Assembly: GCA_963754655.1 (NCBI GenBank)
Contig: CAVWGN010000001.1
Coordinates: 1,696,001-1,760,000, forward strand
DNA length: 64,000 nucleotides
Direction: 5' to 3'
Source of the DNA: an uncultured Chlamydiae bacterium
GTDB lineage: Bacteria; Chlamydiota; Chlamydiia; Chlamydiales; Parachlamydiaceae
Below the pieces are notes generated by a model. It made no database searches. It was not told where the DNA came from and worked only from the letters and a program-made list of their open reading frames with translations. A program made the position numbers and the translations under genes. This document shows positions 783-30,534 of this stretch, piece by piece (positions within the stretch are counted from its first letter, which is position 1; every line of letters starts with the position of its first letter).

Positions 783-810
783 TATAAACATAACGTATAT
801 TATCAGACCT
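783..810 (-). other. dif-like XerC/XerD recombination site (28 bp)
   Basis: Minus strand AGGTCTGATAA-TATACG-TTATGTTTATA; same 11+6+11 layout as E. coli dif GGTGCGCATAA-TGTATA-TTATGTTAAAT. Confidence 0.7.
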
Positions 811-889
811 GTAGTTACATAGCCAATAGGTTTATTCGATGTGAATAAAAAATCGGATAAATATAACTTTCAAGAGTACTATCCAAGTT

Positions 890-1090
890 TCACTCACCTT
901 TCAATAAATTCAATAAATCCTCCGCTTTTACTTCGCCGTTTGTCTTAATCTCAATTAATTGAGCTAAACTTTTCCCACACTTTCTTTTTCCGTTAACAAT
1001 GTCGTTTAAATGCATTCGAGAACATCCAAGCTCTTTGCTAAATTCAGTAATACTAATTTTATTTTTAACGGGATAAATTTTCAATTGCAT
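890..1090 (-). CDS. Cro/CI-type (XRE) helix-turn-helix protein, phage-like
   Basis: SITEFSKELGCSRMHLNDIVNGKRKCGKSLAQLIEIKTNGEV; paralog of 3583-3774. Confidence 0.75.
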   Translation of the reverse strand: MQLKIYPVKNKISITEFSKELGCSRMHLNDIVNGKRKCGKSLAQLIEIKTNGEVKAEDLLNLLKGE

Positions 1091-1426
1091 ACCACCTCTC
1101 TATACACCATATAATCTATCACCTTCAGAAAAACGGTACAATAGCAACTCAGAAAACTATGCATATTTAACACCGTTGCTATACTAGCACCTGGCGAACC
1201 AACTCTGCGATTAATCAATGTTGCATTAGCTATTTGCAGGACAATATGCCATTGTGGTATCAGAACAATGGAACCGATTTAATAACCTTCTGCTTCAATC
1301 TAAAACCTGTTTTTAAATGGAGGAACATTATAGATTAATGGGAAAATATCTATATGATTTGTATATGATCGAGAAAAAGGAAGCTGAGAAGAAATAGGGA
1401 ATAAATGTGAAAATTTATAAGCAAAG

Positions 1427-1490
1427 ATGGACTTATTTAACATCCATTGAGACCGATGCCCAAATTTCCCCCTGGTATCGGTCTCCTAAT
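1427..1490. repeat. ~63 bp dispersed repeat with hairpin, copy 1
   Basis: Near-identical to 3456-3518; stem GAGACCGATGCC...GGTATCGGTCTC. Confidence 0.85.
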
Positions 1491-1840
1491 TTTTCCTCTC
1501 CCCTCTAATGAAATGCGGCCAATTGTATGAGGACCTGTAAGGTGAAGTAAAATTTGGCACAAGCGTCTATCTTTTTAATAATTTAATTATAACGATTTAT
1601 TTTAATAATTGCAAATTGGTTTATCATCATAAAATTGTGTATCGATCGTTACCATAGTTAATAGATTTAAGAAAACCTTAATGTGCTTTATAATCCGAAT
1701 TCTGAGTTGACCCCCTCCTTAAGAGGTTCTCTGAATCGTGGTTAAAAAATTTTCAGACCTATTATCACAAAAATATTGCCTTAGCAAACACATTTGCTAA
1801 AATAGCTAAAGTGACGTATAGTGTATAATCATGCGGGCAA

Positions 1841-2083
1841 TTACAGACTTTCCTTTCCCCTCTTTTCTTCCAAATCCAATTCCTCTTGTAAGTGTTTCCC
1901 AACTAATCTATAGAACTCTTCCATTTCAAAATTATATTTAGCTTGGTTTAGTTTTGTATTACCCATTTGCCATTTCAGCATTATGTTATTTCCATATAGC
2001 CCAAGAACAGCTAATAGAGCAAAGAATCCTATATATTGGTAAAAAGATCTTTGTTTCTTTTCAAATTTAGACATATATAACAA
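1841..2083 (-). pseudogene. Short or degraded paralog of the 4232-4864 hypothetical protein
   Basis: KLNQAKYNFEMEEFYRLVGKHLQ matches KLQQAKYHFEMEEHYRFTGKYIQ. Confidence 0.6.
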
Positions 2084-2398
2084 ATCTCCCTGTTAGACTA
2101 GCCAAGGCTAGCAGCTTGTAATGGCTAGAATTTGGATTATGATATTATTCTATAGGAAAGAGCGACTTACCCACGTTATACTATACAGCAAATAATTAAG
2201 AAATAAAATTCTAAAAAGACTTTTGGGCTTAAGACCGTGGTAAACTCCTTTTATTAACCAAAAGCACAAAATTTCCCATTTATAATATAATTAGAATAAG
2301 AAGGATTGTTAATTTTTCCAATTAATTCATCAAACCTAAGTGTTAAAAAAACTGCATTTTACGGAGATCTTATATCGGGTTATTTTAAAAATTCCTAA

Positions 2399-2494
2399 AT
2401 TTATCCATTGATTTTTTCTAAAATCATGAAATTTATCACCATATTTTTTCTAAAAATGCTTGATTTATCCCCATGTTTTCCCTAAAATTAGCCT
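2399..2494 (+). repeat. Three imperfect 32 bp tandem repeats upstream of an ATPase gene
   Basis: ATTTATC...TTTT(T/C)(T/C)CTAAAA units start at 2399, 2431 and 2463. Confidence 0.7.
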
Positions 2495-2507
2495 AAAAAG
2501 GCTGACT

Positions 2508-27702: not shown

Positions 27703-27932
27703 GTATTTTTCGATCTCAAAATATTCGTCATTAAAAACCAAATCTGAATATAACTGCGGAAGTGATCGAGTTGGATTACCTTAAGTGAAATTAAAAGCTT
27801 AAATTAAAATCTCTTTAATTTATACGCCTTCTTGTTTTTTGGTTTTTAAAAAATTAAACATAAAATTATATAAAAATATACGAAAATAAAATTATTTTGT
27901 AAAATATTAAAAAAAATCATTAAAAGGTAATT

Positions 27933-29306
27933 ATGCAAAGTAACAACATTCATTCACAAACAACGCCAAATCATTTGGAAGAATCCTTATTAAATACACT
28001 TATTCCTAATGAGATATTAGAAATCGTTTTTGATCAGATTGTCAATCAAAAGAGCCAGCCTTTATCTGATATTTCTTCTATTTTACTCACGTGTAAAAGA
28101 TGGAAAAATGTTCTTAAGGCAAATCCTTGTATCTCATTATTGCAAACTCTTTTTCAAATTACACACAGTGATCGATTCACTACTACGCCTCCCAGTGAAT
28201 GCATTATCATACCTGACAAAAAAAAGAAATTTACCTCTCAAGAACTTAAATTGATTGATCAAGCCAATAAAGAAAAAAATACATTTGAAAAATTGTTATT
28301 GGTTGATTCAGAATTATTTCACTCCGACAGTTTATTTCTTTCTCTTTTGAATCGCTATTTATGGGATCCTGAAGTTTGCAAAAACAGCGCCAATCAACGC
28401 ATCAGGATGATTGCTGAAAATCAATTGTCTATTTTAAACTCTCTTATCTCAGGCACTGATGAAGAAAAATTAGCCGTTATCAAAAATGACTTTATCGAGA
28501 AATTTTACCTGGGAGGCGAAGTTAATCAAAGACAGCACGAGGCACAAACATCTGTCATCTCCACTCTTAAAAAATTTCGCAATCTTAATGATAAAAGCGT
28601 TTTTATTCAAATTGCTCACTATTTTGGATCCTGTGTTTTTGATATAGATGAAAGCCTTCAAAAAGATCGAGAAGTTGTCTTAGCGGCCGTTCAGCGAACT
28701 GGCCCGGCTCTTGCCTATGCAGATAAAAGCCTTAGAAAAGATCGAGAGATTGTCTTGGCGGCCGTTAAGCAAGATGGCCATGCTCTTTTCTATGCAGAGG
28801 AAAGCCTTAGAAAAGATCGAGAGATTGTCTTGGCGGCTGTTCAGCGAGATGGCTATGCTCTTGCCTATGCAAATAAAAGCCTTCAAAAAGATCGAGAAGT
28901 TGTCTTGGCGGCCGTTAAACAATACGGCTGCGTTATTGAATATGCAGATGAAAGCCTTCAAAAAGATCGAGACATTGTCTTGGCGGCCGTTAAGCGAAAT
29001 GGCAGTGCTCTTCAATATGCAGATGAAAGCCTTAGAAAAGATCGAGACATTGTCTTGGCGGCCGTTCAGCAAGATGGTAGGGCTCTTCAATATGCAGATG
29101 AAAGCCTTAGAAAAGATCAAGACATTGTCTTGGCGGCCGTTAAGCAAGATGGCGAGGCTCTTCAATATGCAGATGAAAGCCTTAGAAAAGATCGAAAAAT
29201 TGTCTTAGCGGCAGTTAAGCAAAATGGCTGGTCTTTTCAATTTGCAGATAAAAGCCTTAAAAAAGATCAAGAGATGATGTTGGTTTTCCAGGATAGGATT
29301 GCCTAG
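27933..29306 (+). CDS. F-box-like + DUF4116 repeat protein (8 repeats)
   Basis: Paralog with expanded 75 bp repeats. Confidence 0.9.
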   Translation: MQSNNIHSQTTPNHLEESLLNTLIPNEILEIVFDQIVNQKSQPLSDISSILLTCKRWKNVLKANPCISLLQTLFQITHSDRFTTTPPSECIIIPDKKKKFTSQELKLIDQANKEKNTFEKLLLVDSELFHSDSLFLSLLNRYLWDPEVCKNSANQRIRMIAENQLSILNSLISGTDEEKLAVIKNDFIEKFYLGGEVNQRQHEAQTSVISTLKKFRNLNDKSVFIQIAHYFGSCVFDIDESLQKDREVVLAAVQRTGPALAYADKSLRKDREIVLAAVKQDGHALFYAEESLRKDREIVLAAVQRDGYALAYANKSLQKDREVVLAAVKQYGCVIEYADESLQKDRDIVLAAVKRNGSALQYADESLRKDRDIVLAAVQQDGRALQYADESLRKDQDIVLAAVKQDGEALQYADESLRKDRKIVLAAVKQNGWSFQFADKSLKKDQEMMLVFQDRIA

Positions 29307-29362
29307 GTTTTTAGGTGTTTTTCGATCTCAAAACATTCGTTATTAAAAACCAAATCAGCATA

Positions 29363-29860
29363 TCAGTTTGAATCATAGATAGGTTTTTCAATTAGAGGCT
29401 TATCGAAGAGCTCTATCTCTTCAGGTGTTGGTGCTTGGAATATTTTGAACCACATGTGTAGTACATCTCGTTTTATAGGAGGGTCCTCCATGCCACGGTG
29501 TTGAATTCTATTGAAGAGGACATCCAAAGGCACAGAGAGATAATGCAATTCAACAGCGGCACCAAGAGCTCGAGCTTCGAGCCGTAAAGTATCTCGTTCA
29601 GATCTTCCCCATGTTCCCCACTCGATGATTATGATAAGACCGAGCGTAAGAAGCTCCTGACCAAATTTCCACTGTAACGCTTCCACTCTTCCACGCTTTT
29701 CTTCGTCGTAAAGGTTTATCGAAAGAGCATCCATCCATTCATCGGGAGCAAAACGAATTGCGTGCAGTTTTTTTTCGAGCAACTTGGCGAATGTAGTTTT
29801 ACCTGAACCTGGCAAACCGCATATAATAATCAACCTTGGGCCAGTGCTAGATCTTTTCAT
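29363..29860 (-). CDS. AAA_33-type P-loop kinase-like protein
   Basis: IIICGLPGSGKTT; PDEWM; EWGTWGRSERD. Confidence 0.85.
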   Translation of the reverse strand: MKRSSTGPRLIIICGLPGSGKTTFAKLLEKKLHAIRFAPDEWMDALSINLYDEEKRGRVEALQWKFGQELLTLGLIIIIEWGTWGRSERDTLRLEARALGAAVELHYLSVPLDVLFNRIQHRGMEDPPIKRDVLHMWFKIFQAPTPEEIELFDKPLIEKPIYDSN

Positions 29861-29957
29861 AAAGGATCATCATTTTGGTAAATTTATGATTTAGGCCAAC
29901 ATCTTCATATGAATAATCAAATCCCTACGTCATAGGGATCTTAAGTTCTAAAGCTTG

Positions 29958-30209
29958 TTATTGAACCAGCCTGAATCTAGGTTGTAATTTTTCATCTGCG
30001 ATGACATTTTCTAAAAACATAGCAAGTGGGCGTACCCATATTCCTTCCTCTCCATATAAAGCTTGGTAGACCACAAGTTCTTCAAGTGTTTCGCTATGAC
30101 GAGCTATAGCAAGAACCTTATAACGGAAGCCTTTATAGTGCTCATACAGACCATTAATGATTACGGTTTTTGCCAAGAGTGATAACGGGGGTAAAGCTTT
30201 TGAATTCAT
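29958..30209 (-). CDS. DUF1653 domain protein
   Basis: GLYEHYKG...ARHSETLEELVVYQALYG...WVRPLAMFLE...PRF. Confidence 0.9.
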   Translation of the reverse strand: MNSKALPPLSLLAKTVIINGLYEHYKGFRYKVLAIARHSETLEELVVYQALYGEEGIWVRPLAMFLENVIADEKLQPRFRLVQ

Positions 30210-30343
30210 CTATCTCCATGAAGATTCTTGTAAAAGGATTTGCGGACTATTTATCTTCGTTTAATCTTAACAAAAACAGCAATATGGCTTCTAGGATAAA
30301 TATGTTTGTAAAATATTATTAATAAACCTAACAAGTGCTTTTG

Positions 30344-30389
30344 ATGTCTGATAATATTAAAAAAAGAACATCCCCTTCATGTCTGATAA
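30344..30389 (+). other. Tandem pair of XerC-arm-like motifs, 35 bp apart
   Basis: ATGTCTGATAA at 30344 and 30379; region homologous to about 21590-21726. Confidence 0.5.
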
Positions 30390-30534
30390 TAAAATCAAAT
30401 GCTTTTCAAAAAAATTTTCTTTACGATTATAAGCCTCGATTTAGATCGCGTTAATTTATAACAATCACTTTTGTTAGTTTTAAAAAAATTTAAAAAGTTA
30501 AGTATAAAAATTAAATATATGTATACATAAACAA

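Follow-up and report, generated by a model that had tools for sequence, protein, structure and literature searches.

What kind of site is the short sequence that recurs across the terminus region of a parachlamydial chromosome, and what holds its copies in one orientation on each side of that terminus? The question is raised by a stretch of 64,000 nucleotides (the window; C1:1,696,001-1,760,000) in the genome of an uncultured Chlamydiae bacterium (G000), which consists of a 3.12 Mb contig (C1) and a second, plasmid-sized contig of 35 kb (C2). A preliminary description, made from the window alone, had noticed 11 copies of a motif resembling one arm of dif, the chromosome-unlinking site on which the XerC and XerD recombinases act, and had proposed that genes are repeatedly captured there. 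The motif is identified here as the core of the XerC-side arm of dif. One complete dif lies at window positions 783-810, and the other copies at the terminus are half-sites, which keep this arm and form two mirror-image arrays with the arm facing dif. We tentatively read the arrays as a Xer-dependent cassette zone without an integrase of its own, which persists only in the replication polarity of sedentary chromosomal integrons, and we give this reading somewhat less than an even chance. Positions without a contig name refer to the window. Motif identity was screened in 41 order-level relatives, and the wider phylum sample comprised 301 genomes.

The XerC-side arm and the single dif

The motif GTCTGATAA matches the window on the minus strand at 800-808 and on the plus strand at 3396, 11286, 11325, 12460, 12510, 18239, 21625, 21660, 30346 and 30381. 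All 11 copies are thus where they had been described, and none is found beyond 30389 within the window. By chance 0.42 matches would be expected, and 11 were reached in 0 of 100 shuffles of the window. The copies are intergenic, as had been noted: none of the 11 lies in an open reading frame (ORF) with a Pfam family, and only unsupported short ORFs (for example 678-848) overlap them. In the whole genome there are 27 matches, 18 of them inside 87 kb at the terminus (C1:1,638,966-1,726,389), and contig C2 has zero. The proposed terminus location therefore held up in the genome scan, which places the cluster at the GC-skew maximum instead of spreading the motif genome-wide.

The sequence GTCTGATAA is the core of the XerC-side arm in the phylum dif consensus, ACGTCTGATAA-N6-TTATGTT. 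The 12-mer ACGTCTGATAAT is found in 39 of the 41 relatives (its reversed control gave 4 matches in total) and, in genomes with a single copy, TTATG or TTATA follows six bases later at 19 of 20 loci; the pattern TCTGATAA-N6-TTATR locates a site in 40 of the 41. Because the layout is 11-6-11, with the widely conserved XerD arm on the right, the motif is taken as the core of the XerC-side arm, in agreement with the preliminary description. The assignment of the left arm to XerC and of the right arm to XerD would carry over from what is established for E. coli dif. Across the phylum, 219 of 301 genomes carry the 12-mer, with at least 4 copies in about 27, concentrated in the family of G000; many genomes have only dif and no further copies. 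One dif was predicted in each of 14 Chlamydiae, according to the survey of Kono 2011 (PMC3025954).

The complete dif of G000 is on the minus strand at 783-810 (C1:1,696,783-1,696,810) and is composed of AGGTCTGATAA as the XerC-side arm, the spacer TATACG, and TTATGTTTATA as the XerD-side arm. It fits the consensus present in 40 of 41 relatives and is the sole place in the genome where the arm is followed by N6-TTATGTT. At 1.6968 Mb it lies beside the maximum of the cumulative GC skew (C1:1.685-1.695 Mb), and it alone combines the 11-6-11 layout and both arms with a single copy and a position at the skew switch. Two full sites had been described, of which the first stands (GTCTGATAA-TATACG-TTATGTTTATA), whereas the second, at 12508-12535, has a weak right arm, TTATTTCAGAT. 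The tyrosine recombinases of G000 are XerD (345 bits, over the cut-off), a XerC-like protein (312 bits, under the equivalog cut-off of 335) and one P4-type integrase. The genes of all three are far from the arrays, consistent with the earlier remark that no integrase is nearby. The nearest matches of XerD in named records are from Parachlamydiaceae, with 77, 73 and 68% identity.

The terminus sites of G000 comprise dif and 17 half-sites, 10 to the right of dif in the window and 7 to the left, outside the window, at C1:1,638,966-1,653,236 (43-58 kb from dif). All 17 keep the arm and the next two bases, with the consensus cTTTTAAC-GTCTGATAA-TA, beyond which they are A-rich and without XerD arm; the right half of the sites does not complement the arm. 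At 16 of the 18 terminus sites, the arm is directly followed by T or C and then by A, so that the spacer start and the degenerate right arm noticed earlier are both recovered. The arms are perfectly conserved and decayed copies are few. Six tandem pairs, with spacings of 34-50 bp, occur in the two arrays.

In the window, all half-sites are on the plus strand. The first one, at 3394-3421, reads AACGTCTGATAA followed by TA and an A-rich right half without XerD arm. On the dif-proximal side of its arm is a conserved non-coding stretch of about 80-160 bp (3230-3393, plus strand), shared in mirrored orientation with the left-array sites C1:1647623, 1647823, 1653049 and 1653228 (79 bp at 87% and 79 bp at 98.7% identity); a 24-mer from this stretch was unmatched in a species-representative genome collection. 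More generally, some half-sites across both arrays share 80-150 bp dif-proximal to the arm, again mirrored. Tandem pairs follow at 11284-11350 (39 bp apart) and 12458-12535 (50 bp apart, the second member carrying the weak right arm mentioned above), a single half-site at 18237-18264, and two further pairs at 21623-21685 and 30344-30406, each 35 bp apart. The last is a diverged copy of the one before: 21625/21660 and 30346/30381 share about 84% identity over 148 bp, which fits the duplication suspected at the outset. In a genome of the same genus (G002), the sites share only (A)ACGTCTGATAA(T), and the flanks are unrelated on both sides.

Several other observations concern the arm. The resident dif has an XerC arm that departs from the consensus in nine array-bearing genomes (G000, G002, G006, G011, G032, G139, G166, G253 and G262), with AGG, AAG, TAG or GTCCGATAA where the half-site consensus has ACG...; no such deviation was noted in dif-only genomes, but these were mostly found via the consensus 12-mer, which biases the comparison. 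A second type of complete site, arm-T(A/T)(G/T)AGC-TTATG, occurs at G262:C3:24923, G008:C52:26744, G009:C65:20049 and G003:C70:81948. In G262, G008 and G009 it sits off the contig with the terminus dif, and it might be a mimic of dif carried by a plasmid or an element. Just past the window, at C1:1,762,875 and 1,762,944, two arm copies 69 bp apart lie antisense to a 373-residue ORF; comparable arm pairs, 66-67 bp apart, are found in G012, to the right of its dif, and in G014, inside a 695-residue ORF.

Mirror polarity around the terminus

The XerC arm faces dif at 17 of 17 half-sites in G000 and at all 95 half-sites in the seven array-bearing genomes tallied (G000, G002, G006, G139, G166, G253 and G262). 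Among the 27 matches of the whole G000 genome, the 12 at or left of dif, dif included, are all on the minus strand, and the 15 to its right are all on the plus strand. The 10 half-sites on the XerC-arm side of dif are consequently all inverted relative to it, and the 7 on the XerD-arm side are direct and at least 43 kb away. In G002, 17 of 17 matches right of dif are on the plus strand, out to 430 kb. The pattern is two-sided in G006 (left 8/8 minus, right 4/4 plus), and the arm likewise points towards dif in G139 (left 6/6, right 5/5), G253 (left 4/4, right 3/3) and G166, a member of another family (left 8/8, right 4/4, spread to 185 kb). G262 has 5 minus matches and then 14 plus matches (19/19); the change of strand falls on a dif whose arm is a variant, GGTCCGATAA-TGTACA-TTATGTTGCTA, and coincides with the switch of the skewed word AGGGGAGT. 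Two smaller cases, G008 and G032, have the same polarity.

This arrangement does not agree with the earlier proposal of co-oriented hybrid scars left by repeated capture at dif, since the left array of 7 is on the other strand and the predicted orientation is found at 0 of 95 sites. A circle carrying an arm and an unrelated spacer-junction sequence, recombining with dif, would give a scar, the element and a regenerated dif in that order, all in direct repeat. The scar is thus predicted on the XerC-arm side, pointing to dif, and the real sites there are inverted, which excludes a plain stack of integrative mobile elements exploiting Xer (IMEX).

The bias extends to the isolated copies. Outside the arrays (1.63-1.73 Mb excluded, third-order Markov expectation), GTCTGATAA occurs 0 times on the leading strand, where 9.2 are expected, and 9 times on the lagging strand, against an expectation of 9.0. 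The corresponding leading and lagging counts are 6 vs 26 for GTCTGATA, 100 vs 96 for TCTGATAA and 8 vs 8 for the reversed control, and only 129 of 15,171 word pairs of similar count are equally lopsided. Seven of the nine non-array copies are within ORFs, in one sense or the other, so the bias goes with replication and not with genes. In G002, 21 of 21 matches on two contigs are on the lagging strand, as judged by the skew of the word AGGGGAG. Leading-strand avoidance is seen in G000, G002 and G006 and is not seen in G012, G031 and G007.

At all 17 half-sites of G000, the leading-strand template is the strand that reads 5'-GTCTGATAA-3'. In E. coli dif, the strand with this reading corresponds to the one cleaved by XerC and, by this analogy, the strand presumably cleaved by XerC is always the leading-strand template. 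The polarity follows the direction of replication rather than dif. A separate argument, that the polarity is independent of the strand of dif, was withdrawn, because a flip of the contig leaves the mirror pattern unchanged. The word AGGGGAG, together with AGGGGAGT and GAGGGGAG, is itself replichore-skewed (leading 174 vs lagging 33) and flips at the origin and the terminus; its skew is repeated in G002:C1-C2, G006:C2 and G262, which makes it a candidate for an orienting word of this family resembling the FtsK-orienting polar sequences (KOPS).

An alignment of sister genomes had been suggested as a check on the role of the sites, and it was only partly informative. G000 is too diverged from three genomes of the same genus, in which positions 1-16000 of the window have nearly no DNA match. 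Within another genus, G253 has arrays and G089 only dif, which is syntenic between the two, and both arrays of G253 are inside lineage-specific insertions, at their origin-proximal edges. The right array is at the edge of a 4-kb insertion, and only about 65 bp separate its last site from the conserved terminator that belongs to the flanking gene. The left array begins 563 bp into a lineage-specific segment, which exceeds its G089 counterpart by about 22 kb. This comparison holds at the gene level, the intergenic DNA being not alignable.

Origin and maintenance of the half-sites

Site-specific exchange at the arm/spacer boundary is the simplest source of an arm whose 12-13 bases are perfectly conserved in dozens of places while the DNA to either side is unrelated, and the polarity together with the genome-wide avoidance points to a filter tied to replication. 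In the cassette reading, which we prefer with the reserve expressed above, the half-sites would be attachment sites or cassette junctions moved by the host XerC, with or without XerD, through strand exchange at that boundary. Arrays would grow by insertion into existing half-sites, not by plain stacking at dif. Sites would survive only where the XerC-cleaved strand is the leading-strand template, and the opposite polarity, which is the one made by integration at dif, would be unstable through rapid excision, or harmful. As such a constraint would be set relative to the replication forks, it would produce mirror-image arrays on either side of the terminus. There are precedents. According to PMC13108822, the reactive attC strand of sedentary chromosomal integrons is on the leading-strand template, inversion of an integron array raises excision, and toxin-antitoxin cassettes penalise the wrong orientation. 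For CTXphi, PMC3442271 describes an exchange by XerC only, resolved by replication.

Several points weigh against this reading. No excision or insertion event has been seen: the sole public reads, from a soil-metagenome run, yield low-depth contigs without joints at the sites, and this run (28% of sampled words, contigs at about 3x depth) is uninformative on such joints, the only one found on window 1-20000 being that of an insertion sequence (IS) copy (12558 to 5145). The tandem pairs 34-50 bp apart are unaccounted for by insertion or excision. The 4-kb right insertion of G253 has sites at one edge, not both. The one site folded (window 3300-3440, both strands) forms no single-strand hairpin (z -0.39 and -0.36), so that the reason for the polarity in integrons, the folding of the lagging-strand template, is not obviously transferable. 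Homologues of six modules in 40 relatives, with up to 90% identity and in other genera, are not beside half-sites, which gives no sign that modules travel with their sites. The polarity is not universal, being violated in G021, G040, G083, G148 and G267, mostly unenriched genomes, with further exceptions in G012, G031 and G007; where compared with the control, the exception genomes have no enrichment of the word. Finally, the reading would need a route by which founder half-sites came to be in the tolerated polarity.

The geometry also suits a different explanation, in which half-sites bound by XerC or another protein are one-way barriers that form a trap centred on dif, with accessory DNA merely accumulating near the terminus. 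Opposed groups flank the terminus, their innermost opposed sites being 4 to 66 kb apart in six genomes, and asymmetric sites in two opposed groups, as in Ter systems, occur in 7 genomes. The reach of the sites (430 kb from dif in G002, 185 kb in G166), the perfectly conserved arms with few decayed copies, and the tandem pairs, which would reinforce a barrier, fit as well, and avoidance of one orientation genome-wide, with the other at neutral frequency, is what would be expected if normal forks were blocked. A trap is nevertheless hard to reconcile with sites that lie in lineage-specific DNA, do not keep their positions between congeners and are absent from the many phylum genomes that have dif alone. 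A terminator protein is neither known nor found, the de novo rise of dozens of identical 12-mers is unlikely without recombination and, as reported in PMC2800217, E. coli XerC alone binds weakly to a half-site and stops FtsK in neither orientation. We regard such a trap as the main competitor of the cassette reading, though an unlikely one. If it existed, the half-sites might represent a third kind of bacterial terminus trap, for forks or a translocase, in which the Xer machinery reads half-dif copies, the wrong orientation is purged chromosome-wide and cassettes are tolerated only in the places and the manner that the trap allows; we would be surprised, though not greatly, if this proved correct.

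Ordinary IMEX scars, made at dif as in Vibrio, Neisseria and Legionella and later flipped or spread by block and terminus-symmetric inversions, have a clearly smaller chance. The XerD side of the half-sites is degenerate, as in the IMEX attP (Kono 2011, PMC3025954), an off-consensus dif arm, present in the nine array-bearing genomes listed above, is expected if dif takes the incoming arm, and symmetric inversions would presumably keep the pattern once inverted. Yet the orientation made by integration is absent from all the tallied sites, the arrays are often not contiguous with dif but start at a distance of tens of kb (43 kb in G000, 39 kb in G253), and many lineages would each have had to undergo block inversions of their own unless a polarity filter were added, with which this explanation becomes the cassette reading. 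Still less probable is the end or target of a strand-specific transposable element, which would insert in one template strand of the fork and either imitate the XerC arm or use it as its target. Elements that exploit the lagging-strand template typically have an orientation that depends on the replichore, and IS605 and IS607 genes are present in both arrays; in addition, PMC10132070 describes, for elements of the IS1202 family, the targeting of dif sites on the XerC side and in one orientation. However, the shared sequence is exactly the dif arm, the flanks on both sides of it are unrelated between sites, and no transposase is consistently beside them. A link to IS607 or IS605 was rejected: the 1832-bp IS607-type IS of the window (11 full-length copies across G000, 98-99.6% identity) is spread genome-wide and has no link to the sites, and the piece at 12559-12892 is a truncated copy that was inserted 24 bp away from a site. 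Hardly any weight attaches to the motif as an operator or promoter element for neighbouring genes, with GATAAT as a -10 box. Two sites in G032 are 29 bp before the start codons of F-box genes, but 4 of the 6 site loci of the window have, as their downstream neighbour, a gene that is transcribed towards the site, and in the remaining two this neighbour begins over 420 bp away, so that the promoter-distance alternative raised in the preliminary description fails; moreover, the orientation tracks the replichore and not the genes, and the motif is identical to the dif arm throughout the phylum.

Gene modules and relation to known systems

The DNA between the sites of the window is a succession of small modules. 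Between dif and the first half-site (890-3092, minus strand) there are an HTH_3 gene (890-1090) beside the XerC arm of dif, an 80-residue ORF and an IS5-type transposase fragment (2706-3092). The second module (3583-10921) contains an HTH_3 paralogue (3583-3774), a 210-residue ORF, the IS607-type IS (5145-6976, with tnpB at 5151-6425 and the serine-recombinase gene tnpA at 6349-6915), a lipase-like ORF of 599 residues and an ORF of 417 residues. It is followed by a YafQ-type toxin with a ParD-like antitoxin (11363-11871, minus strand), of which a 90% identical copy is found elsewhere in another genus, without adjacent half-site, and by a module (12559-18135, minus strand) with the truncated IS607 end, an S-adenosylmethionine-dependent (SAM) methyltransferase, a large catalase and an NTP_transf_8/AbiEi_2 toxin-antitoxin pair. 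The next module (18560-21539) carries a cupin, a split AbiEii with AbiEi, and a hydrolase-SnoaL fusion, and the last (22083-30209) an IS5, four DUF4116 paralogues, an AAA_33 kinase and a DUF1653 gene. The toxin-antitoxin loci, catalase, cupin and methyltransferase of the preliminary description are thus present, whereas no Fic or MFS family is found among the 39 ORFs of at least 50 residues in window 1-32100, all of which were scanned for Pfam families. The left array carries two IS607 copies, IS605, HigBA, an amidohydrolase, a TPR protein and a 1024-residue ORF, and arrays of other genomes carry F-box paralogues, an Ntox50 toxin, AbiE and ankyrin genes.

Some modules have features of their own. 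Two of the toxin-antitoxin pairs are of the AbiE type. The AbiEii toxin gene (18945-19618) is broken into two ORFs of 118 residues each. The DUF4116 repeat proteins are a tandem family of five genes at 23766-32097, separated by the IS5 from the half-site pair 21625/21660, with a further member of 659 residues left of dif (C1:1,668,998-1,670,977). The small HTH_3 gene that abuts dif in G000 on the XerC-arm side has a 50% identical counterpart in G002, which abuts dif there on the XerD-arm side. None of the 11 HTH_3 copies in G006 is adjacent to a motif; the two nearest are 3.5 and 3.7 kb off, and the other nine are without one nearby. The lone gene between dif and the first half-site in G002 is a weak F-box match (E 9.5e-4, below the cut-off). 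In G032, the cassettes (C14, C21 and C76; loci L070, L071 and L076) are single F-box-like paralogues of about 390-440 residues, most of them with a C-rich box behind them and the XerC arm after that. This box (reverse complement GGGGAGGG) was considered as a partner of the sites and dropped on the G000 counts, as CCCCT is within 250 bp on the arm side or within 60 bp beyond at only 6 of 17 half-sites. Two dispersed repeats also occur in the window, one palindromic and resembling a miniature inverted-repeat transposable element (7286-7430, about 145 bp, well over 100 copies in G000 in both orientations), the other of about 115 bp with about 30 copies (6979-7092).

The arrays point to integrase-free gene acquisition in obligate intracellular bacteria, a group usually credited with few acquisition routes, and their cargo (toxin-antitoxin, polymorphic toxin, F-box, ankyrin, TPR and DUF4116 families) is relevant to life in hosts. 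They indicate that a recombinase half-site can hold a strict replication polarity across a phylum and would link Xer biology to an orientation rule so far known only from chromosomal integrons. The cassette filter and the trap are both open to simple assays, and the true dif together with the half-site consensus can improve terminus annotation in Chlamydiota genomes. A literature search returned IMEXs, the dif modules of Acinetobacter and the integron orientation rule, and no account was found in it of half-site arrays or mirror polarity, in Chlamydiota or elsewhere. The arrangement is repeated across the phylum, and none of the systems described so far explains it in full.

The arrays resemble IMEXs such as CTXphi, VGJphi and TLCphi of Vibrio, the gonococcal genetic island and LME-1 of Legionella, which, as far as described in PMC9765430 and PMC3025954, use the host Xer recombinases without an integrase of their own and combine a good XerC arm and a degenerate XerD side with a terminus location and accessory cargo. 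IMEX scars adjoin dif on its XerC-arm side as direct repeats, whereas the half-sites are on both sides of dif with the arm towards it, often tens to hundreds of kb away; a direct-repeat hybrid beside dif on its XerC-arm side is not found in G000, all 10 sites there being inverted. With the pdif/dif modules of Acinetobacter, as presented in PMC12907356, they share rows of modules that include toxin-antitoxin genes and IS, Xer-type separators and an organization in islands. Those modules have complete 28-bp XerC/XerD sites in alternating orientation, in an island far from the main dif (PMC12907356), whereas the sites here are half-sites of uniform polarity per replichore that flank the main dif, and so are not of the pdif kind.

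Sedentary chromosomal integrons are similar in their long cassette arrays with many toxin-antitoxin genes, a tyrosine recombinase of the Xer/integron kind and a reactive strand on the leading-strand template, in the account of PMC13108822. They differ in that G000 is without intI and attI, none of its three tyrosine recombinases being near the arrays, and in that the one folded site has no attC hairpin, the sites copy half of dif, and there are two mirrored arrays instead of one.

The terminus traps Tus-Ter and RTP-Ter have asymmetric sites in two opposed groups round the terminus, some far out and some paired, and the half-sites are like them in all these respects. Ter sites are positionally conserved host sites with a dedicated protein, whereas here a recombinase arm is found in variable DNA. 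The strand polarity that flips at the terminus is shared with KOPS and other replichore-skewed words; unlike KOPS, which are frequent and over-represented genome-wide, GTCTGATAA is at or below chance outside the arrays.

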